In this document: positions 5,511-58,939 of the stretch, in pieces | How positions within the stretch are numbered: position 1 is the stretch's first letter | How the letters are laid out: every line of letters starts with the position of its first letter | Source: a bacterium | Lineage (GTDB): Bacteria; Bacillota_I; Bacilli_A; RF39; UBA660 | Assembly (NCBI GenBank): GCA_014846175.1 | Contig: RKAV01000041.1 | Span: 1-58,939 of the forward strand | DNA: 58,939 nt | Reading direction: 5' to 3' | The notes under the pieces: model-generated | Databases searched by the model: none | What the model was told of the DNA's origin: nothing | The model's input: only the letters and a program-made list of their open reading frames with translations | Made by a program: the position numbers and the translations under genes

Positions 5511-6911
5511 CTAATTATTAACTCTTTGTTTTATCATTTTAGTTCCTGGTGTTATCTTATCAAAATGATAACCATGTTCTTTACCATATTTAATAATTTG
5601 TCTTAAAGCATCTCTTGTATATGGTTTTATATCATGCATTAATACCATATTAGTTCTATCTTTTGATAAATTTCTTGTAACTTGATTTATAATACTTCCT
5701 GAATCTTTATATTCACCTGCATCACCACTAGATATATTCCAATCATAGTAGTAATATCCTTTTTCTATTACTTCGTTAGTTAAAGTAGACATTATTCCTT
5801 CTTGATAGTGTCTACTAATAGTATTACTACTACCTCCTGGGAATCTAATAATTCTACTATCATAACCAGTAATAGCTGCTACTCTATCATGAACTTTAGT
5901 TAAATCATTAAAATAAGCATCTACTGATTGATAGACTGTCTTATAATCATGAGAAAAAGTATGTAATGCCACCGTATGTCCTTCATCATATTCTCTTTTG
6001 ATTAAATCATCTGGTCCATTACCAGTTACAAAGAAAGTAGCTTTTACATTTTCTTCTTTTAAAATATCTAAAATAACATTAGTAGTACCATAATGTGGTC
6101 CATCATCAAAGGTTAAATAGATAGTACCTGGACTATCTCTTCTTACCATTTTAACTGTTCTTTTAGTTTCTGTTTTATTATGAAATTTATCTTCTACTGT
6201 ATAAGTTATTACTTGATCACTACTACTATTAGTATCAATACTACCACTAGTTATAACCATTCCTGTTATATCACCATCACAATTATCAATTGCTTTAAAC
6301 CCTGGTTCAACATAAGGTTCTCCTATATAGGAAAATACTATATCTCCACCAGTTAACTCAATCTTTGGAGCTTCCTTATCTCCTATTTCTATAGTTCTTT
6401 TAACACTAGTCTTATTATGAGCCTTATCTTCTACTTCATAAGTAATAGTATCTTTATCTTTTACTACTTTTACTTTCTTAGTTAAATCACCATCTATATT
6501 ATCAATCGCTTTATACCCTAATTCTTTATATTTACTATTAGGGCAAATATAAGTTTTTTTATCTCCTTCTAAAGTAATAACAGGGCTTTCTAAATCTTTA
6601 ACTTCTACTTTTCTTTTAGTACTAACAGTAATAAAAGGTCCTTTTACTTTATAAGTTAAGTAATATATACCATCTTTTTTATTATTAATCTTACCGGTTA
6701 CTTTTACTTTATCAGTTAAGTTATCAAAAATATAATTAGCTTGATATCCTGGTTCTTTATATTCACTATTTATATTTAACATAACAGTTGTTTTACCTTT
6801 TAGATTGATTCTTGGAATCAATAGAAAAAAGATAGAGATTATAACTACCAACATTATAAGAATGATAAGAACTATTTTTCGTTTCCAATTTGATTTATTA
6901 ACTTTTTCCAT
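5511..6911 (-). CDS. Membrane-anchored polysaccharide (NodB-type) deacetylase with three Ig-like repeats
   Basis: N-terminal TM segment and three (E/K)PG(Y/F)(K/Q)A..D..DGD repeats. The C-terminal NodB motifs are TFDDGP and HTFSH. Confidence 0.8.
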   Translation of the reverse strand: MEKVNKSNWKRKIVLIILIMLVVIISIFFLLIPRINLKGKTTVMLNINSEYKEPGYQANYIFDNLTDKVKVTGKINNKKDGIYYLTYKVKGPFITVSTKRKVEVKDLESPVITLEGDKKTYICPNSKYKELGYKAIDNIDGDLTKKVKVVKDKDTITYEVEDKAHNKTSVKRTIEIGDKEAPKIELTGGDIVFSYIGEPYVEPGFKAIDNCDGDITGMVITSGSIDTNSSSDQVITYTVEDKFHNKTETKRTVKMVRRDSPGTIYLTFDDGPHYGTTNVILDILKEENVKATFFVTGNGPDDLIKREYDEGHTVALHTFSHDYKTVYQSVDAYFNDLTKVHDRVAAITGYDSRIIRFPGGSSNTISRHYQEGIMSTLTNEVIEKGYYYYDWNISSGDAGEYKDSGSIINQVTRNLSKDRTNMVLMHDIKPYTRDALRQIIKYGKEHGYHFDKITPGTKMIKQRVNN

Positions 6912-7018
6912 AGTGCCTCTTTCCAGTTACTATATTATAACATAACTAATATTTTTTTAAAACAATAAACTTCACTAATTATTATACCACAGTAGTATAA
7001 GTTTTAAACCAAGATAAA

Positions 7019-7046
7019 AGTTCTTCTAACAAGTATTAGAAGAACT
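7019..7046 (-). terminator. Rho-independent terminator after the 104-aa membrane protein gene
   Basis: 11-bp stem AGTTCTTCTAA/TTAGAAGAACT with a 6-nt loop. It is followed on the minus strand by TTTTATCTT. Confidence 0.5.
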
Positions 7047-7052
7047 TCTAGT

Positions 7053-7367
7053 TTAGTTCTTTTTATTCTTGATTAACTTAATAACTTCACTATAGTTAAT
7101 AACTGCAACTACAATTAATGATACTTGTAAAATTAAAACTATTATAGCAAATATACTTCCATCTTTTAAAGAATTGATTAAATAATTTAATTCATTAACA
7201 TTTAATCTTCTTGCTAAAAATATAATTGAAGTTATTACTACTAATAGTATATAAACTAAACTACTAATACACTTCTTCCACTTTTTTGCTCTAAAAAACT
7301 TATAACATGTAACACAAACTATTGCTACTAATAAACATAAAACTACTAAATATATAAAATTAACCAT
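7053..7367 (-). CDS. Small integral membrane protein (3 predicted TM segments)
   Basis: Hydrophobic segments in the translation. Tightly packed 9 nt downstream of ldh. Confidence 0.5.
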   Translation of the reverse strand: MVNFIYLVVLCLLVAIVCVTCYKFFRAKKWKKCISSLVYILLVVITSIIFLARRLNVNELNYLINSLKDGSIFAIIVLILQVSLIVVAVINYSEVIKLIKNKKN

Positions 7368-7376
7368 AATTTCCTC

Positions 7377-8294
7377 CTAATACAACTCTGGTGGTAATAC
7401 TTCATCTACTGCTTCTTTTAAGACTTTAGTAACCATTACTAATTGTTTTTCTTCTTCTTCATTTAATTTAACTGGTATTTGTTTTATGATACCCTCTTTT
7501 CCAATAACTACTGGGGTGGAAAAGTATAAATCATAATCACTTTGATAATTAGAAACAGAATAAATTTTCTTTTCATCATTTAATATAACTTTAGTTAGTT
7601 CTAAAAGACAACAACTAACACCATGTGATGTATAACCTTTAGCATTTACTATCATACCACCCATTTTCTTAGTAATAGAGGAAAACTCATCTTTCTCTTC
7701 TTTAGTTAAGTAATTCTTTAAAGATGACATAGCAATATTAGCATTATTATAATAAACAAATTGACTATTTCCATGTTCTCCTAATACATAAAGGTTAATA
7801 TCATTACTAGAAATATTTATCTTTTTACTAATTAAACTTTTTAATCTAATAGTATCTAACATAGTACCCGTACCAATTACTTTTTGATAAGGATAAGATA
7901 AATAAGTAGCTGTTAACTGACTTATCACATCTACTGGATTAGTAGCTACTAAGATAATACCATTAAATGAAGTATTAGCAATAGAATCAGTTACTTCTTT
8001 AACCATTTTACTAGCACCAGCTAAATCTTCTAACCTACTTTTCTTACTTTGGGGAAGTCCAAGTGTTAAGACACATATATCAGCATCATTTAAAGCTTGA
8101 TAATTTCCTATCTTAATTGTTAATGATGAATCTATTAAAGTCATTCCTTGTTCTAAATCAAGTATTTCTCCTTTTAATTTTTCTATATCTTTATCAATTA
8201 ATACTACTTCCCCACTAATAGATTTATCAAATACTAACTTTTCTAAATAAGATAATCCAACATGTCCTAACCCTATAATCACAATCTTAGCCAT
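7377..8294 (-). CDS. ldh: L-lactate (L-2-hydroxyacid) dehydrogenase family
   Basis: N-terminal GLGHVG Rossmann motif, PQSKKSRLEDL substrate loop with Gln/Arg, and catalytic GEHGNSQ. Confidence 0.8.
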   Translation of the reverse strand: MAKIVIIGLGHVGLSYLEKLVFDKSISGEVVLIDKDIEKLKGEILDLEQGMTLIDSSLTIKIGNYQALNDADICVLTLGLPQSKKSRLEDLAGASKMVKEVTDSIANTSFNGIILVATNPVDVISQLTATYLSYPYQKVIGTGTMLDTIRLKSLISKKINISSNDINLYVLGEHGNSQFVYYNNANIAMSSLKNYLTKEEKDEFSSITKKMGGMIVNAKGYTSHGVSCCLLELTKVILNDEKKIYSVSNYQSDYDLYFSTPVVIGKEGIIKQIPVKLNEEEEKQLVMVTKVLKEAVDEVLPPELY

Positions 8295-8297
8295 TTT

Positions 8298-9581
8298 TTA
8301 TTCTTCCTTTCTAAATACTTTTATAAATCTAGTCCATACCTTTTCATTAGAATAATTTAAAATACCTACTTTATATACTTTCATACCATATTTAATTAAT
8401 AAATATAAAAGACCAATTAATAAGATAATAGCTATTGATATATCTAATATACTTATCTCTCCCATTATATATAAAGTTGGTGCTAAAAGGCAAGATATTA
8501 ATGGTAGATAAGCTACTATTTTTAAGAAAGTACTACCTTGAAACATACCAGCCATAATTGCTAAATAATAACCTGCTAAAAGAATAAAAACAATAGGAGT
8601 TTGTAACTGTTGAAAGTCTTCGATATTAGTAGTCATGGAAGCAAGTATTCCAGCAAGTAATGAATATGCTAAGAATGATAATATGATAAGTACTAATAAG
8701 AATGGTAGTAATGATACTATATCGTTAATTAAACCACTAGTAGATAGACTATTCCAAATACTAGTTATCTCACTAGGTATATTTAAACTTCCATTTCTAC
8801 TACTAATAAGGAATGCTATTAAACCATAGAGAAATAGTAATAAAGCTTGTAATAAAACAAATAAGTTATTAGCTATTATCTTAGCTAAAAGATGTACTTT
8901 AGGACTTACATTAGAAATAATTATTTCCATACTTTTAGTTGTTTTCTCTTCACATATTTCCCCACCTACCATCTGTACTAGAAAAACAATTAACATAAAG
9001 AATGGTAGTATTAAACTAGGAAAAACTGTACTCATTAATAAACTCATATTCTCATCTTGATTATTCTTATCACTTAAAACTTCTCTTTTAATATCTATAT
9101 TAGTAGATAGTAAATCTAATGTATTGGCATCTAGATTTAATTTTTCTATAAGTACTTGTTGTTTAGTAGTATTTAATCCTTGATAAATAACTTGATATAC
9201 ACTACTATCTATCTTTTTATTACTAGTAACTTTAGCTTTTAATAAGTTATCAGTAAGATTAAGACTGATAAGTATCTCATCATCTTTTAGTTTTTTCTTT
9301 TCTTTATTAATACTATTTACTACTATTTTTTTATCTTCTAATGCAAAAGTATTAATATTATTTTTTAAATAAGGATAAGAGATATTAGTCTTATCATAAA
9401 CAAGTACTTTTAATGGTTTATCAAATTCTCCTCCAAAGAAAGTTATAATTGAGTTTAGATTAAATAGAGCAAATAAAGCAAGAGCAAGTATTATATTGAT
9501 AACAATAAACCATTTAGATTTTAACTTTTTATTAAAACTTATCTTCATAAGGTAGAAAAACTTTCTAGTCATTATTAGCAC
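8298..9581 (-). CDS. ABC-2 type transporter permease (NatB-like)
   Basis: An N-terminal TM segment, a large extracytoplasmic loop and a C-terminal 5-TM bundle. Overlaps the upstream ATPase gene by 17 nt. Confidence 0.75.
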   Translation of the reverse strand: MLIMTRKFFYLMKISFNKKLKSKWFIVINIILALALFALFNLNSIITFFGGEFDKPLKVLVYDKTNISYPYLKNNINTFALEDKKIVVNSINKEKKKLKDDEILISLNLTDNLLKAKVTSNKKIDSSVYQVIYQGLNTTKQQVLIEKLNLDANTLDLLSTNIDIKREVLSDKNNQDENMSLLMSTVFPSLILPFFMLIVFLVQMVGGEICEEKTTKSMEIIISNVSPKVHLLAKIIANNLFVLLQALLLFLYGLIAFLISSRNGSLNIPSEITSIWNSLSTSGLINDIVSLLPFLLVLIILSFLAYSLLAGILASMTTNIEDFQQLQTPIVFILLAGYYLAIMAGMFQGSTFLKIVAYLPLISCLLAPTLYIMGEISILDISIAIILLIGLLYLLIKYGMKVYKVGILNYSNEKVWTRFIKVFRKEE

Positions 9582-54886: not shown

Positions 54887-54914
54887 ATGACCTAGTCCAT
54901 TAAATGACTAGGTC
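54887..54914. repeat. Hairpin repeat copy 2 (terminator of the RloB-like gene)
   Basis: ATGACCTAGTCCATTAAATGACTAGGTC with a 9-bp stem. It lies directly 3-prime of the minus-strand stop at 54920. Confidence 0.85.
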
Positions 54915-54919
54915 TCTTT

Positions 54920-55531
54920 CTATTTTTCTAATTCATCTATTATTTGATAAACATCTGAGTGAGGATTAGCTTCAACTGATTGAATATCTCTATTATTTTC
55001 TTTTTGATATTTTTCCAATTTTTTAGCATTATCATATGCTTTTTTAGTTTTATCAACAATAATTGGATACATATTACAATTCTTAGTATATTTTGGAAAA
55101 TGCTCTTTTAATCTTTTTATTACTGCATCGCTATTCATGTTAGCAGTCGTATATTCATAATGTAATAAAAACCACGTTTCTATACAAGGTGAAGATGTAA
55201 TTACGACTACACTATTATTTTGTGCTAATTTTATTGTTTCTTTTATTTGAGTGTTTTTACTAGAATTAACATCTGTATCAAATATACAAAATGCTCTATC
55301 ATCATCTTCTAATACTAATCTTAATTCTTTCGCTTTATCTATTGTTTGTTTAACTAAATTTACTGGATCTGTTTCATTACCAGGAACTACTTTAATTGTA
55401 TAATTTTTATCTATACCTTTAAAGCTATCAAAATAATTTCTTTCAGTTTTATTTTTACCCTCATAAGCTACTAATATTACTCTTTTTGATCTACGGTCAT
55501 TTCTATTTCTTTGTCTATCTCTACTGCTCAT
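54920..55531 (-). CDS. RloB-like TOPRIM-type protein (AbiLii / split OLD-nuclease module)
   Basis: VILVAYEGKNKTERNYF (Toprim Glu), AFCIFDTDVN (DxD) and SSPCIETWFLLHYEY match the RloB pattern ILV.CEG.KTE..YF / vFD.D / NPCFE.WlLLHF. Confidence 0.8.
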   Translation of the reverse strand: MSSRDRQRNRNDRRSKRVILVAYEGKNKTERNYFDSFKGIDKNYTIKVVPGNETDPVNLVKQTIDKAKELRLVLEDDDRAFCIFDTDVNSSKNTQIKETIKLAQNNSVVVITSSPCIETWFLLHYEYTTANMNSDAVIKRLKEHFPKYTKNCNMYPIIVDKTKKAYDNAKKLEKYQKENNRDIQSVEANPHSDVYQIIDELEK

Positions 55532-55533
55532 AT

Positions 55534-56778
55534 TTACTCTTTAAAGTCATCAAAATTATTTACTAAGAATGGCACAGCACCATATCTTCCTAATAAATAA
55601 CCCTTCTCAACATTTTCAGATTTTCTTATAGAGAAGTCATCTAAAGCATATAATGTACTTTCTCCATTTTCTGGATTCTTTTCCGTAAACCATATTTGAT
55701 CTCTTCTTAGTAACTCTAAATCTAATAAATTAGTATCATGTGTATTAAATATTAACTGAGCATTATTTTTGTTCAAATCTGGATCATTAAATAATTCAAC
55801 TATATATTTGACAATATATGGGTGCAAGCTTTTATCAAACTCATCAATTAATAATACTTTACCATTATCAATTACATCTTTAATAACTGGTATAAATGAA
55901 AATATTACTTGTGTACCTAATGATTCTTCCGAAATATCAAAATCATATTTATCGCCATTTGCAATATGAGTTGTATTTACTTTAAACATAGGTGTATTTG
56001 TTGGTATAAATGGTCTCATAATATCAGGTAATGTACTAATTAATTCATCCGTCATTTTTTCTTGTATAACCTTATAACCTTTAATATTAAAATCTGCTTT
56101 TTCTAAAAATTTAAGTGCAAATTTTTCTAAAGTTTTATCCTTATCATTATAATACATATTATAAGAATAATTATTTAATTGTTCATATGACATTACTACG
56201 CCTAGTTTCTCAGTTAAAAAATCAAATGCTGGTTTTGTTTTTTCAAAATTCCAATTAGTTGCTGTTGTTATAAAAAATTTATTGGCAGTATTCTTTTCTT
56301 TAACATCATTTAAAAATTTTTCATCACTTACATTAAATGAATATTCATTTATATTTTCTCTATTAAATATTTTAACTGGTCTGCCATTTGGATAATATGT
56401 TAAATATTCTTTATAAATATTTTTAGCATCTGCTTCAAACCCATATATATACCTTACACCATCAATTAGAAATTTTATTTCAAACCCACTTGGCTTCTTT
56501 ATAGTTTCTTTATCTAACTTAAATGGTATTATTGGTAACAAAACATTTGGATTAATAAAATTTGATTGTCTTATCATATTACTTATTAAAGCTAATATTT
56601 TAAATAAATTACTTTTACCAGATGCGTTTGCACCATATAATGCAGTCATCTTTAATAGCTTTTCATTTCCTATACTTGTAAAATTATCTTCCAAAGTATT
56701 GTCTGAAGATGCAATCATTGAAAAAGTATTTTTTTCTTTAAATGATAAAAAATTTGTAATGCTAAATTCTATTAACAT
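55534..56778 (-). CDS. ABC/SMC-like AAA ATPase (AAA_15/21 type; AbiLi/AriA-like)
   Basis: Walker A GANASGKSN, Walker B LLIDEFDKSLHP, then QLIFNTHD. The ATG at 56778 (MLIEFSITNF) follows an AGAGGAG RBS. The stop is 2 nt from the RloB-like start. Confidence 0.8.
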   Translation of the reverse strand: MLIEFSITNFLSFKEKNTFSMIASSDNTLEDNFTSIGNEKLLKMTALYGANASGKSNLFKILALISNMIRQSNFINPNVLLPIIPFKLDKETIKKPSGFEIKFLIDGVRYIYGFEADAKNIYKEYLTYYPNGRPVKIFNRENINEYSFNVSDEKFLNDVKEKNTANKFFITTATNWNFEKTKPAFDFLTEKLGVVMSYEQLNNYSYNMYYNDKDKTLEKFALKFLEKADFNIKGYKVIQEKMTDELISTLPDIMRPFIPTNTPMFKVNTTHIANGDKYDFDISEESLGTQVIFSFIPVIKDVIDNGKVLLIDEFDKSLHPYIVKYIVELFNDPDLNKNNAQLIFNTHDTNLLDLELLRRDQIWFTEKNPENGESTLYALDDFSIRKSENVEKGYLLGRYGAVPFLVNNFDDFKE

Positions 56779-56802
56779 ATAAATCATCTCCTCTTTGTAT
56801 AT

Positions 56803-56832
56803 ATTATATGCATATTTTTGAATAAAAATCAA
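56803..56832 (-). promoter_or_regulatory. Candidate promoter of the ATPase/RloB pair
   Basis: The minus strand reads TTGATT (56832..56827), 18 nt of spacer, TATAAT (56808..56803). Confidence 0.5.
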
Positions 56833-56905
56833 TTTTTTAACAATTATTATTAATTTTTTGTATTTTTTTTGCAATTTTTACATTTTATTTAGCTATTTGT
56901 ACCAG

Positions 56906-57220
56906 CTAGTAATCTAATAAATAATTAACTTCAGAAAGAAAATCATCTATTTTATCTATTAAATCATTATCTAAATAAACATGCTTGCAATCTTTTATTA
57001 ATCCATGTTCATCTTTTGGTAATTCATCTCTTGCTTTTTCAAACTCAGTATAAGTATATAATTTGCCATTACATAGAATCCTTACATTATTATCATATCC
57101 TTTATATAATTCTCTACGCCAGTTCTTTATATCATCTAAAACTGATAGTATTTTATGTCTAGAAGCCACTATTTCCATTTCTCTAGAACTTTCAGTTTCA
57201 AATACGTATTTATCATTCAT
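56906..57220 (-). CDS. Hypothetical 104-aa acidic protein
   Basis: Intact ORF whose start overlaps the upstream stop by 8 nt (ATGAATGA). Confidence 0.6.
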   Translation of the reverse strand: MNDKYVFETESSREMEIVASRHKILSVLDDIKNWRRELYKGYDNNVRILCNGKLYTYTEFEKARDELPKDEHGLIKDCKHVYLDNDLIDKIDDFLSEVNYLLDY

Positions 57221-57413
57221 CTTTTTTATCCTCCTTCTCTACTTCAGATAATTCTTCATAATCTTCTTCATATCCTAATCTTCTTAAATAATCTTTTCCA
57301 CCATCAACTGCAACTGCACCACATTTACAAAATTCAAAATCATGTCTATAAGTAGATTCAATAACATCTCCACATTTTTTACATTTAATTTTATTAACTA
57401 TTATCTTATTCAT
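57213..57413 (-). CDS. 66-aa zinc-ribbon protein with acidic tail
   Basis: CKKCGDVIES...HDFEFCKCG supplies four Cys ligands. The start overlaps the AbiEi-like stop by 8 nt (ATGAATAA). Confidence 0.6.
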   Translation of the reverse strand: MNKIIVNKIKCKKCGDVIESTYRHDFEFCKCGAVAVDGGKDYLRRLGYEEDYEELSEVEKEDKKDE

Positions 57414-58032
57414 AAAACCACTCCAATAAATCCATTACTTCTTTTTTAATACCCATTTTATCTGCATACTTATAAAGTTTAACAAGATCTTTATCTTTTC
57501 TCTTAATATATTCTCTTAAACTATATTTAATATGTTCATTATCCATTCTTTTTTTAGACCTTATAATATCACATATACATCTTTCAATATCATACACTCT
57601 AACAATATTTCCAAATGGTGTTTTGACTTCTGTTAATCCTAATTCATATATATCATCAGAAACATAAAACACATTATGATTTTTCAACTTAATACTATTA
57701 TAATTTTTCTTAACAGTTACATCATATTTACTATCAGGAACTTTTATAGAAAGTCCATGAAAGTACAATGCAGTCATATGAGAATATATAATACCTGGCA
57801 AATTCAAATTAAGTACATAATAAGAATCTGGAAATTTATTAACATCAAGATATATTCCATTATCAAGTTTTTCTATTATTCCTCTATCTAACATAATATT
57901 AAGGTAGATTCTATGAATACCTAATTCAGTTAATTGCTTAGATGTAATGTATCCATTATTAATCTTCATAAGTTCTTGTATTATCTCAATATTACTTTGA
58001 TCTTTAAACTCTTTTATAGTCATCTTTTCCAT
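57406..58032 (-). CDS. AbiEi-like (type IV TA antitoxin-family) wHTH regulator
   Basis: The N-terminus IIQELMKINNGYITSKQLTELGIHRIYLNIMLDRGIIEKLDNGIYLD fits the AbiEi_4 N-terminal domain pattern. The ATG at 58032 has better RBS spacing than 58038. Confidence 0.65.
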   Translation of the reverse strand: MEKMTIKEFKDQSNIEIIQELMKINNGYITSKQLTELGIHRIYLNIMLDRGIIEKLDNGIYLDVNKFPDSYYVLNLNLPGIIYSHMTALYFHGLSIKVPDSKYDVTVKKNYNSIKLKNHNVFYVSDDIYELGLTEVKTPFGNIVRVYDIERCICDIIRSKKRMDNEHIKYSLREYIKRKDKDLVKLYKYADKMGIKKEVMDLLEWFYE

Positions 58033-58207
58033 ATACATTCTCCTTTTGACTTTTACACCTTTATTTTATATTTTATCAGTATAAATGTCAATATCATTAT
58101 AAAAATAAAATACTAATAATTTATATAAAAATTAGTATTTTTTTAAATTTACATACCTAGCTTAGTACCTAAAAATATTTAATAGGTTTAAACACTTTAA
58201 AATAAGC

Positions 58208-58232
58208 AAAAAAAGTGGAGCCTTTCGGCTCC
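58208..58232 (-). terminator. Strong rho-independent terminator (GAAA tetraloop)
   Basis: The minus strand reads GGAGCC-GAAA-GGCTCC followed by ACTTTTTTT. Confidence 0.7.
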
Positions 58233-58356
58233 TTCAGGGGGCGGTTAGAATTCACGTACTTCAAAGTTTATATAAATACTTTTTCGTTTATTTAAAAGGA
58301 TTTAAAAGTAAATAAAATAACTAAATATTATAAGAATTTTAAATTCTTGGTAGTTG

Positions 58357-58393
58357 AAAAGGTAGTTGAGATATTTCTTAACTACCTTTTTTT
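58357..58393. terminator. Bidirectional terminator downstream of the right-edge gene
   Basis: Stem AGGTAGTT / AACTACCT, with A4 before and T7 after. Confidence 0.55.
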
Positions 58394-58435
58394 ATGACAA
58401 GATGACAATATTACTGATGGTGCCTCAAACAAGTG

Positions 58436-58939
58436 TCATTTTGTCATTTTTTCTTCTTTAAACTCATTTATTAATGCTATAAATTCATCATCAGACATTT
58501 TTACATATATTCTACTACAGTATTTTTTTTGGAATAACATCACATTATGTACTGATAAACCACAATTTTTAATTATTAATATTTTCCTTTTTCTAGTTGC
58601 TTTTTTATCCTTATTATTTTTAAAAAATATTCTAATAAATAGTACTTCATATTTTGAATACAACTCTATTAAATATTCTAATGGTATAATTAATATTAAA
58701 TATACAATTGGAATCATGAAACTTATAAAAGTATTCAAAACATTTAATTCTTTATACTCTCTTAATCCAAGTTTAAAAGTTTCATAAAAGAACCAAATAC
58801 TAATAATTACAAATATTGTTTGCATAAACTTATGTACAATTTTGTATTCTTCTTTTCTTTCAGCAACAGCATCAACTAATTCTTCAAAATTATCTTCACC
58901 AATGTACTTTATGAGTTCTTGTGGTTCTGATTTAATTTT
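58436..58939 (-). CDS. Membrane protein of unknown function, C-terminal part (ORF open to the right edge)
   Basis: The 38 codons upstream of the track ATG (58825) are in frame and stop-free to 58939 (KIKSEPQELIKYIGEDNFEELVDAVAERKEEYKIVHKF-MQT...). There are two TM segments. Confidence 0.55.
   Translation of the reverse strand, partial: KIKSEPQELIKYIGEDNFEELVDAVAERKEEYKIVHKFMQTIFVIISIWFFYETFKLGLREYKELNVLNTFISFMIPIVYLILIIPLEYLIELYSKYEVLFIRIFFKNNKDKKATRKRKILIIKNCGLSVHNVMLFQKKYCSRIYVKMSDDEFIALINEFKEEKMTK

Follow-up and report, generated by a model that had tools for sequence, protein, structure and literature searches.

Three overlapping genes with abiEi at their head

The DNA analyzed here, called the window in the following, is a stretch of 58,939 nucleotides (nt) from a genome of the RF39 lineage of Bacilli (assembly GCA_014846175.1, contig RKAV01000041.1). 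Near its end three genes lie on the minus strand: a gene for an AbiEi protein (57406..58032), a gene for a DUF7695 protein of 66 amino acids (aa; 57213..57413) and a gene for an acidic orphan protein of 104 aa (56906..57220). We refer to them as the trio. A sequence-only reading had reported three open reading frames (ORFs) on the same strand joined by two 8-nt overlaps, and both the coordinates and the overlaps were confirmed. The start of the DUF7695 gene overlaps the stop of abiEi (ATGAATAA), and the start of the 104-aa gene, which has AGGAGG 9 nt upstream, overlaps the stop of the DUF7695 gene (ATGAATGA); both overlaps are letter-identical in 10/10 related loci compared. For abiEi the ATG at 58032 is the better start, with GGAG 7 nt upstream and a product of 208 aa, as in homologues; the alternative ATG at 58038 opens an ORF of 210 aa (57406..58038). 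Genetic code 4 was considered, the DUF7695 stop being TGA, but TAA follows immediately and long ORFs are open under table 11, which leaves the reading unchanged. An Rfam search of 56700..58939 gave no credible match.

Within the clade of the window, the pairwise ratio of nonsynonymous to synonymous substitution rates (dN/dS) is 0.08 for abiEi, 0.10 for the DUF7695 gene and 0.10 for the 104-aa gene; all three ORFs are therefore real genes under purifying selection. The position normally held by the toxin AbiEii is occupied by DUF7695. That a nucleotidyltransferase is missing had been seen before and holds on a wider scale: AbiEii (PF08843) has no match among the ORFs of the operon, elsewhere in the window or in the rest of the assembly (1.2 Mb, 93% complete; with 92 contigs and just 900 bp of the window upstream of the operon, an unassembled copy is conceivable).

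The protein encoded by the first ORF was compared with profiles and structures, as the sequence-only reading had recommended for its AbiEi-like ORF, and the family assignment stands. It scores with Pfam AbiEi_4 (PF13338; residues 21-64, 25.5 bits, just above the cut-off of 25) and with 21 PADLOC AbiEi models (best PDLC02225, 3e-60, residues 16-209 of 210). Among proteins of solved structure it matches S. agalactiae AbiEi (PDB 6Y8Q; 3.4e-36, residues 17-206) and AbiGI (PDB 9HLO; 2.7e-36), and both alignments cover both domains, from residue 16. Judged by these matches, it is a full-length AbiEi with a winged helix-turn-helix (wHTH) and the AbiEi C-terminal domain. The protein is thus a member of the AbiEi family (COG5340); the operon does not belong to the AbiE system as defined, because the toxin is absent. 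Motifs of the C-terminal domain in the toxin-less clades described below are identical to those of AbiEii-linked relatives, and only 8 fixed differences, mostly within residues 52-82, separate the clade of the window from canonical AbiEi. S. agalactiae AbiEi represses its own promoter through inverted repeats, and the C-terminal domain is required for repression (PMC3985639). Since the domain has this second function, its conservation needs no toxin.

The second ORF had been described as a four-cysteine zinc ribbon, which agrees with its match to DUF7695 (PF24749; 5.7e-29, 100 bits versus a cut-off of 25, profile positions 1-58 of 58). Invariant residues of this domain of about 58 residues are C11, C14, C29, C31, G38, G39, Y42 and R45, and the motif DGG..Y(L/I)(R/K)R is present. 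The core of the protein is basic and its tail acidic. An AlphaFold2 (AF2) model is all-beta with a predicted local distance difference test score (pLDDT) of 88. Compared with the PDB by Foldseek it has no significant neighbor, only weak generic zinc-finger pieces; the fold matches only viral DUF7695 proteins (Tetraselmis virus and phages of Klebsiella, Proteus, Providencia and Vibrio; Foldseek E 4e-6), with TM-scores normalized to the window's protein of 0.77-0.86 for the three best viral DUF7695 matches. By tblastn, Geobacillus virus E3 and phages of Bacillus anthracis were also seen to encode the core. The family is catalogued as PHROG 7042 and PF24749, of which the window's protein is a full member; a literature search found no mention of DUF7695.

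The third protein is acidic, as had been noted (isoelectric point (pI) 4.9, net charge -7), and carries the motif WRRxLYKG(Y/K)D, in the window WRRxLYKGYD. No family was found for it in Pfam, NCBIfam, PHROG or PADLOC. Its sole PDB sequence-profile match, an arginase at E 0.028, was judged to be chance, and Foldseek of the AF2 model (pLDDT 78, alpha/beta) against the PDB gave no match below E 1. A profile search yielded 70 representatives at E<=1e-3, each of about 100 aa, and the family was found in 3/399 genomes of the class. The gene is truncated in 3/10 trio loci and also in loci L022-25 of our collection, and many database clusters of the family on long contigs are shorter than 75 aa. Intact copies in the trio clade always precede an ATPase pair, and these pairs are of three unrelated types. 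Outside this clade, a 70%-identical relative follows a DUF7695 and precedes another AAA_21+RloB pair. An 83%-identical one comes after two genes resembling metallophosphoesterases (a label from sequence reading), and a 61%-identical one (L110-L112) overlaps a gene for an XRE HTH protein of 114 aa by 11 nt and is followed by an AAA_13 ATPase or an Abi_2 protein. For the distant homologue P0305 no locus was found in genome contigs. From these arrangements, the 104-aa gene typically appears to be last before a defense cassette.

Most close relatives carry AbiEii at the same overlap

To place the operon among its relatives, we compiled 80 genomic loci encoding an AbiEi 64-97% identical to that of the window and classed them by downstream content. 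An intact AbiEii at the same 8-nt overlap is present in about 38-41 of the 80 loci (three loci cut by a contig end were counted variably), and most of the close relatives with 64-76% identity have this canonical arrangement. In six loci AbiEii is followed about 30-50 nt later by DUF7695. DUF7695 comes directly after abiEi on its own in 13 loci and together with the 104-aa gene in nine, and in two a Bro/DinD-like gene stands before DUF7695. Altogether DUF7695 lies within 1.2 kb downstream of abiEi in 30/80 loci, which argues that its link to AbiEi-like genes, suspected before, is not random. The two observations that the sequence-only reading had named beforehand as contrary to it, a first ORF that does not score as AbiEi and small ORFs occurring only in prophages with no AbiEi link, were not made. 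How closely the two kinds of locus are related is illustrated by a 76%-identical AbiEi with canonical AbiEii at the 8-nt overlap and a 74%-identical AbiEi with DUF7695, a truncated 104-aa gene and AbiL.

In this lineage the toxin is commonly lost and the antitoxin retained. AbiEii is broken in 10/80 loci (L048, L054, L058, L059, L060, L074 and L084-L087), where abiEii is split or cut down to a stub of 30-90 codons and abiEi is of full length. A protein of 284 aa (cluster 4) found behind AbiEi in some loci was considered as a divergent AbiEii and rejected; by sequence reading, with no family search made, it looks Bro/DinD-like.

A maximum-likelihood tree of AbiEi contains two supported toxin-less clades, one of 14 rows (100/100) that includes the window and one of 11 rows (100/97). 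In both, the DUF7695 start and the abiEi stop overlap by 8 nt, and the identity matrices of AbiEi and DUF7695 correlate with a Pearson r of 0.85. The simplest history would be an order abiEi-abiEii-DUF7695 from which abiEii was lost; this loss would thereby have put the native DUF7695 start (M-x-K-I-I) in the overlap register of abiEi.

The second toxin-less clade (L082, L088, L097, L098, L104, L162) has a prophage-like surrounding, in which a serine recombinase is followed by AbiEi, DUF7695, a Bro/DinD-like protein, a protein of 259 aa and a lysin-like protein with LysM repeats (labels by sequence reading).

The operon promoter and its operator-like repeat

The best sigma-70-like site in the region is TTGACA-17-TAAAAT (58063..58091, minus strand, 11/12 matches), which aligns with the canonical abiE promoter of the same clade and is the predicted promoter of the operon. 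Its -10 element is bracketed by an operator-like inverted repeat (58046..58091, minus strand) made up of IR1 TTGACATTTATACTGA (58076..58091) and IR2 AAGGTGTAAAAGTCAA (58046..58061), the position of which is homologous to that of the canonical 14-16/16 inverted repeat. The layout is common to all classes of loci: TTGAC of the -35 element forms the outer end of IR1, GTCAA in front of the ribosome-binding site forms the outer end of IR2, and the -10 element lies between them. In canonical loci the half-sites stand at a fixed distance and are complementary at a mean of 14.6/16 positions; the mean of shuffled sequences is 11.1, and only 5.5% of these reach 13. The inner positions change in step between groups (CTAATGA/TCATTAG versus CTACTGA/TCAGTAG). 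S. agalactiae AbiEi binds two inverted repeats in its operator and represses transcription (PMC3985639), and the layout in the canonical relatives mirrors that operator. In the window itself the repeat is 11/16 complementary; as this is the shuffled level, it was rejected as proof of autoregulation.

Upstream of the -35 element lies an AT-rich palindrome, AATACTAAT-N13-ATTAGTATT, followed by a T-run (58104..58144, minus strand). This inverted repeat of 14 nt (I3) is 93% complementary and is shared by 12/14 loci of the clade that includes the window. Possible roles are those of an insulating hairpin and of a second operator.

DUF7695 occurs in many genomic contexts

To determine how DUF7695 is distributed, 301 genomes were sampled evenly from the taxonomic family of the window; it is present in 28 of them, giving about 27 usable loci. 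AbiEi is upstream in 6/27 of these loci and absent in 21/27, and an AbiLi-like ATPase, 25-100% identical to the query types, follows DUF7695 in 9/27. The order RecG>DUF7695>AbiLi>AbiLii exists without AbiEi, with an AbiLi 25-55% identical to that of the window. Seen from the other side, the same sample holds 36 RloB loci in 33 genomes, and DUF7695 lies within about 2.5 kb upstream in 7/36, that is, in about a fifth of the AbiL-like (AAA_21+RloB) loci. Ten genomes contain both DUF7695 and RloB, and in seven of them the two are adjacent. Elsewhere DUF7695 comes after TnpV and DUF6809 and ahead of an MmeI-like methyltransferase, stands among phage early genes between YopX and DnaB, or precedes AAA_13, AAA_14, Bro/DinD and phage replication genes. 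Judged by these neighborhoods, DUF7695 is a promiscuous protein of viruses and mobile elements that is enriched beside AbiE and AbiL and required by neither; it mostly occurs without AbiEi, and 29/36 RloB loci are without it.

The domain is also found in larger proteins. It is fused to a second CxxC...CxxC zinc ribbon in proteins of 136-144 aa (L061, L066, L069, L072, L081), and in L098 and L104 (at 6600-7964) it is part of a protein of 454 aa with a large C-terminal region to which no family was assigned.

The trio as a probable AbiE operon without its toxin

On balance, we favor the reading that the trio is an AbiE operon whose toxin was lost and which has survived, headed by AbiEi, as a leader operon bordering a defense island, and hold it to be somewhat more probable than its alternatives taken together. 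We prefer it because the nearest relatives mostly carry AbiEii at the same overlap behind a promoter of the same design, while two clades have DUF7695 in this place. AbiEi would be retained as a DNA-binding autorepressor of the promoter at 58063..58091; autorepression is suggested here by analogy with S. agalactiae AbiEi. It would thereby determine how much is made of the two small proteins, which are coupled to it in translation, and perhaps also how much read-through there is into the abiL genes downstream. DUF7695, probably of viral or mobile origin, would already have been a habitual downstream neighbor of abiE in this lineage and may be an accessory factor that probably binds nucleic acid or protein, rather than a toxin. 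The 104-aa protein could be an accessory that the operon can do without, its gene tending to be the last of a regulator-led operon ahead of ABC-type defense ATPases. The trio as a whole would then be the conserved recG-side edge of an integrative defense island, ahead of an exchangeable AbiL cassette.

Four observations weigh against this reading. IR2 of the window has drifted, and the complementarity of its repeat is at chance level by count, which leaves continued autorepression insecure. In each of the two toxin-less clades, DUF7695 is translationally coupled to AbiEi at the overlap that AbiEii uses, as would also be expected of a true partner, including a toxin. The frequent loss of the 104-aa gene while the upstream genes are kept is the pattern of decay expected of a toxin gene. 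Finally, no terminator lies in front of abiLi and DUF7695 is enriched upstream of AbiL-like systems; the trio may thus be tied to AbiL.

The neighboring AbiL cassette and the edge of the island

The trio directly precedes an AbiL system and stands at the edge of a slot in which cassettes are swapped, a setting that the sequence-only reading did not include. The abiLi-like gene (55534..56781, minus strand) encodes an AAA_21 ABC-type ATPase (PF13304, 3.7e-42; PADLOC AbiLi, 9.7e-96), and its partner, the abiLii-like gene (54920..55531, minus strand), encodes an RloB protein (PF13707, 2e-38; PADLOC AbiLii, 1.4e-22). Both belong to a neighboring cassette outside the conserved unit of the trio. This cassette has a promoter-like site of its own, TTGATT-18-TATAAT (56803..56832, minus strand), in the 124-nt gap before abiLi. 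A terminator scan of the region made no call in the stretch that separates the 104-aa ORF from abiLi; downstream of the operon promoter, a terminator-like hairpin appears for the first time after abiLii (54889..54914, minus strand). The gap (56782-56905) contains short repeats TGCAAAAAAAATACAAAAAA, and the gap of another AbiL type contains GTGAAAAAATCAC; these are possible cassette-specific operators.

Behind trios that are more than 90% identical, the ATPase pair is 99%, 46%/30% or 25% identical to that of the window. Homology between loci with different AbiL types stops right after the stop codon of the 104-aa gene, and each type has its own promoter-like site. By these alignments, the conserved unit ends at the 104-aa stop codon and different AbiL cassettes are exchanged beyond it. 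An AAA_21 ATPase followed by RloB, the arrangement that defines AbiL, is found in the neighboring cassette, and the comparison speaks against the trio being an obligatory, co-evolving part of it. A third kind of ATPase, of 391 aa and 25% identical to AbiLi, lies behind a typical trio in L006 (at 6434-8351) and also in L120, together with a protein of 264 aa that does not match RloB.

On the other side, blastn alignments with loci of the trio and canonical AbiE types start at about 58241, the outer end of a boundary segment of about 105 nt (58137..58241, minus strand). It contains a C-rich motif CCCCCTGAAGGAGCCGAAAGGCTCC, a terminator hairpin GGAGCCGAAAGGCTCC at 58217..58232 with a T-run, and AGGTAC repeats. 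At the corresponding position, L059, L062, L069, L072 and L075 have the exact boundary motif, which in L153 stands between recG and DUF7695. Many loci keep the segment upstream of abiEi, and in many genomes it is directly downstream of recG; here the upstream gene encodes a membrane protein. A tyrosine integrase on the other strand closes many related loci. The segment is a candidate island edge or attachment site, and a small RNA is less likely.

A variant from the human gut (L022-L025) is widespread (187 blocks of the collection) and is flanked by housekeeping genes, with no integrase. Its abiEi is about 75% identical to that of the window at the DNA level and the whole 3.2-kb stretch 89% identical, and the downstream DUF7695, truncated 104-aa gene and AbiL are much closer to the window. 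Because of this difference the locus is a mosaic, in which recombination seems to have joined the two parts within abiEi or at its end.

Other explanations of the trio

The best-surviving alternative is a defense system of five genes, which we regard as unlikely. Trio and AbiL pair would work together: AbiEi would control transcription, and DUF7695, the 104-aa protein or both would serve the AAA_21 ATPase and the RloB/TOPRIM effector as a sensor, an adaptor or a brake. It is consistent with the uninterrupted stretch from the 104-aa ORF to the first terminator after abiLii, with the ATPase pairs that always follow intact 104-aa genes in the trio clade, and with the second case of a 104-aa protein (70% identical) and DUF7695 ahead of an AAA_21+RloB pair. 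The position of DUF7695 upstream of 7/36 RloB loci, its adjacency to RloB in 7/10 genomes with both, and the loci in which RecG and DUF7695 precede a divergent AbiL pair point in the same direction. However, the small genes do not co-vary with AbiL, as trios of more than 90% identity stand before AbiL pairs that are 25-99% identical, and the homology break at the 104-aa stop together with separate cassette promoters speaks for independent units. Most RloB loci (29/36) do without DUF7695, which in turn precedes genes as different as those for the MmeI-like methyltransferase, AAA_13, AAA_14, Bro/DinD and phage replication proteins. Mere co-location in the same island slot is also compatible with these data.

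It is improbable, in our view, that the trio is a non-canonical toxin-antitoxin or abortive-infection module in which AbiEi, or the basic/acidic DUF7695, neutralizes a new small toxin, likeliest the 104-aa protein, that has replaced AbiEii. The strictly conserved 8-nt coupling is the same as that between abiEi and abiEii, the 61%-identical homologue overlaps its XRE HTH gene in the classic layout of antitoxin then toxin, truncation with persisting upstream genes is also seen for toxins, and AbiEi's C-terminal domain, which neutralizes the toxin in AbiE, is fully conserved without AbiEii. Against this, the 104-aa protein has a pI of 4.9, searches of Pfam, NCBIfam, PHROGs, PADLOC and the PDB and with Foldseek assigned it to no known family or fold of toxins, and its relatives also follow metallophosphoesterase-like genes without overlapping a regulator. 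DUF7695 stands alone in phages and in most genomic loci and so needs no antitoxin, and AbiEi's C-terminal domain also serves repression (PMC3985639). The sequence-only reading had offered a toxin partner set or a phage-derived regulatory module. Its first option, with the two small proteins as a replacement toxin set, has against it the DUF7695 loci without AbiEi (21/27), the copies in lytic phages, DUF7695 behind an intact AbiEii in six loci, the frequent truncation of the 104-aa gene where AbiEi and DUF7695 are intact, and the pairing of its 61%-identical relative with an XRE regulator instead; no support was found for either small protein as a substitute toxin. The second option is nearer to the evidence.

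Quite improbable, too, is that AbiEi and DUF7695, with or without the 104-aa protein, form a portable control head for AbiL-type ABC-ATPase/TOPRIM effectors and related effectors of abortive infection, in which AbiEi, no longer bound to a toxin, would gate transcription and DUF7695 would bind the effector or a phage cue. If this were true, the many DUF7695 copies of lytic phages would be mimics that disarm or trigger the control head.

Least probable is that the orphan AbiEi serves as an anti-addiction or anti-defense factor against the AbiEii of mobile elements that enter the cell or compete, DUF7695 and the 104-aa protein being unrelated passengers: such a role has been proposed for orphan antitoxins on mobile elements (PMC11541004), cross-reacting toxins should circulate, as canonical abiE with a 64-76% identical AbiEi is very common in the same gut Bacilli, and AbiEi has outlived AbiEii in the 10 loci with a broken toxin, but this would leave unexplained why AbiEi is so strictly coupled to, and inherited together with, DUF7695 over a sequence divergence of about 35%, and the fixed differences of the window's clade lie near the wHTH and the linker, not in the toxin-facing C-terminal domain.

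Comparison with known systems

In the literature and in defense-finding software, AbiEi counts as half of the AbiE system. In the loci described above, an AbiEi closely related to the canonical proteins persists with no AbiEii; selection on it is strong, it is kept in this way in two clades and in many gut species, and it is always coupled to DUF7695. This makes the trio a natural test case for a role of AbiEi beyond the neutralization of a toxin. The same question is raised by the AbiEi homologue in JCVI-syn3.0, which remains quasi-essential after deletion of the toxin (PMC13621843). An AbiEi match alone should not be annotated as a toxin-antitoxin system. In addition, the links to AbiE and AbiL loci give DUF7695 a first genomic context, and the related loci provide a clean map of a cassette-exchange boundary in a defense island of small-genome gut Bacilli.

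Antitoxins without a toxin partner are already known as a general phenomenon, and AbiEi, DUF7695 and AbiL all have catalogue entries. We found no paper that describes the pairing of AbiEi with DUF7695, the link between DUF7695 and AbiL or the 104-aa family. What is new here is that AbiEi and DUF7695 form a stable, translationally coupled pair in loci with no AbiEii, that DUF7695 is linked with AbiL-like loci, and that there is a small family of 104-aa proteins.

The closest known system is AbiE, a type IV toxin-antitoxin and abortive-infection system of AbiEi (COG5340) and AbiEii (DUF1814) from S. agalactiae and L. lactis (Dy et al. 2014, PMC3985639). The trio resembles it in having AbiEi as first gene, a TTGACA/TAAAAT promoter with flanking inverted half-sites, an 8-nt overlap to the second gene and a location in a mobile or defense island. 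In contrast to AbiE, it has no AbiEii in the operon or the genome, its second gene is the 66-aa DUF7695 followed by the 104-aa orphan, and its promoter repeat is degenerate (11/16). Since there is no toxin, the trio cannot be a type IV toxin-antitoxin system as defined.

AbiL and PARIS (AriA/AriB) are two-gene ATPase/TOPRIM systems described without an AbiEi, zinc-ribbon or 104-aa component. The AbiL cassette of the window (54920..56781) scores with the models for AbiLi and AbiLii; it carries a promoter of its own, and it is exchanged separately from the trio.

Regulators at the 5' edge of defense islands are known from the WYL regulators BrxR/CapW and from CapH/CapP ahead of CBASS. To our knowledge, the AbiEi family has not been described as an edge regulator of variable defense cargo. 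The regulator of the trio differs from these in being of the AbiEi family and in having no sensing domain or protease partner, and its control of the cargo is putative. The trio and the regulator-led islands are alike in that a conserved DNA-binding regulator stands beside a changing cargo.

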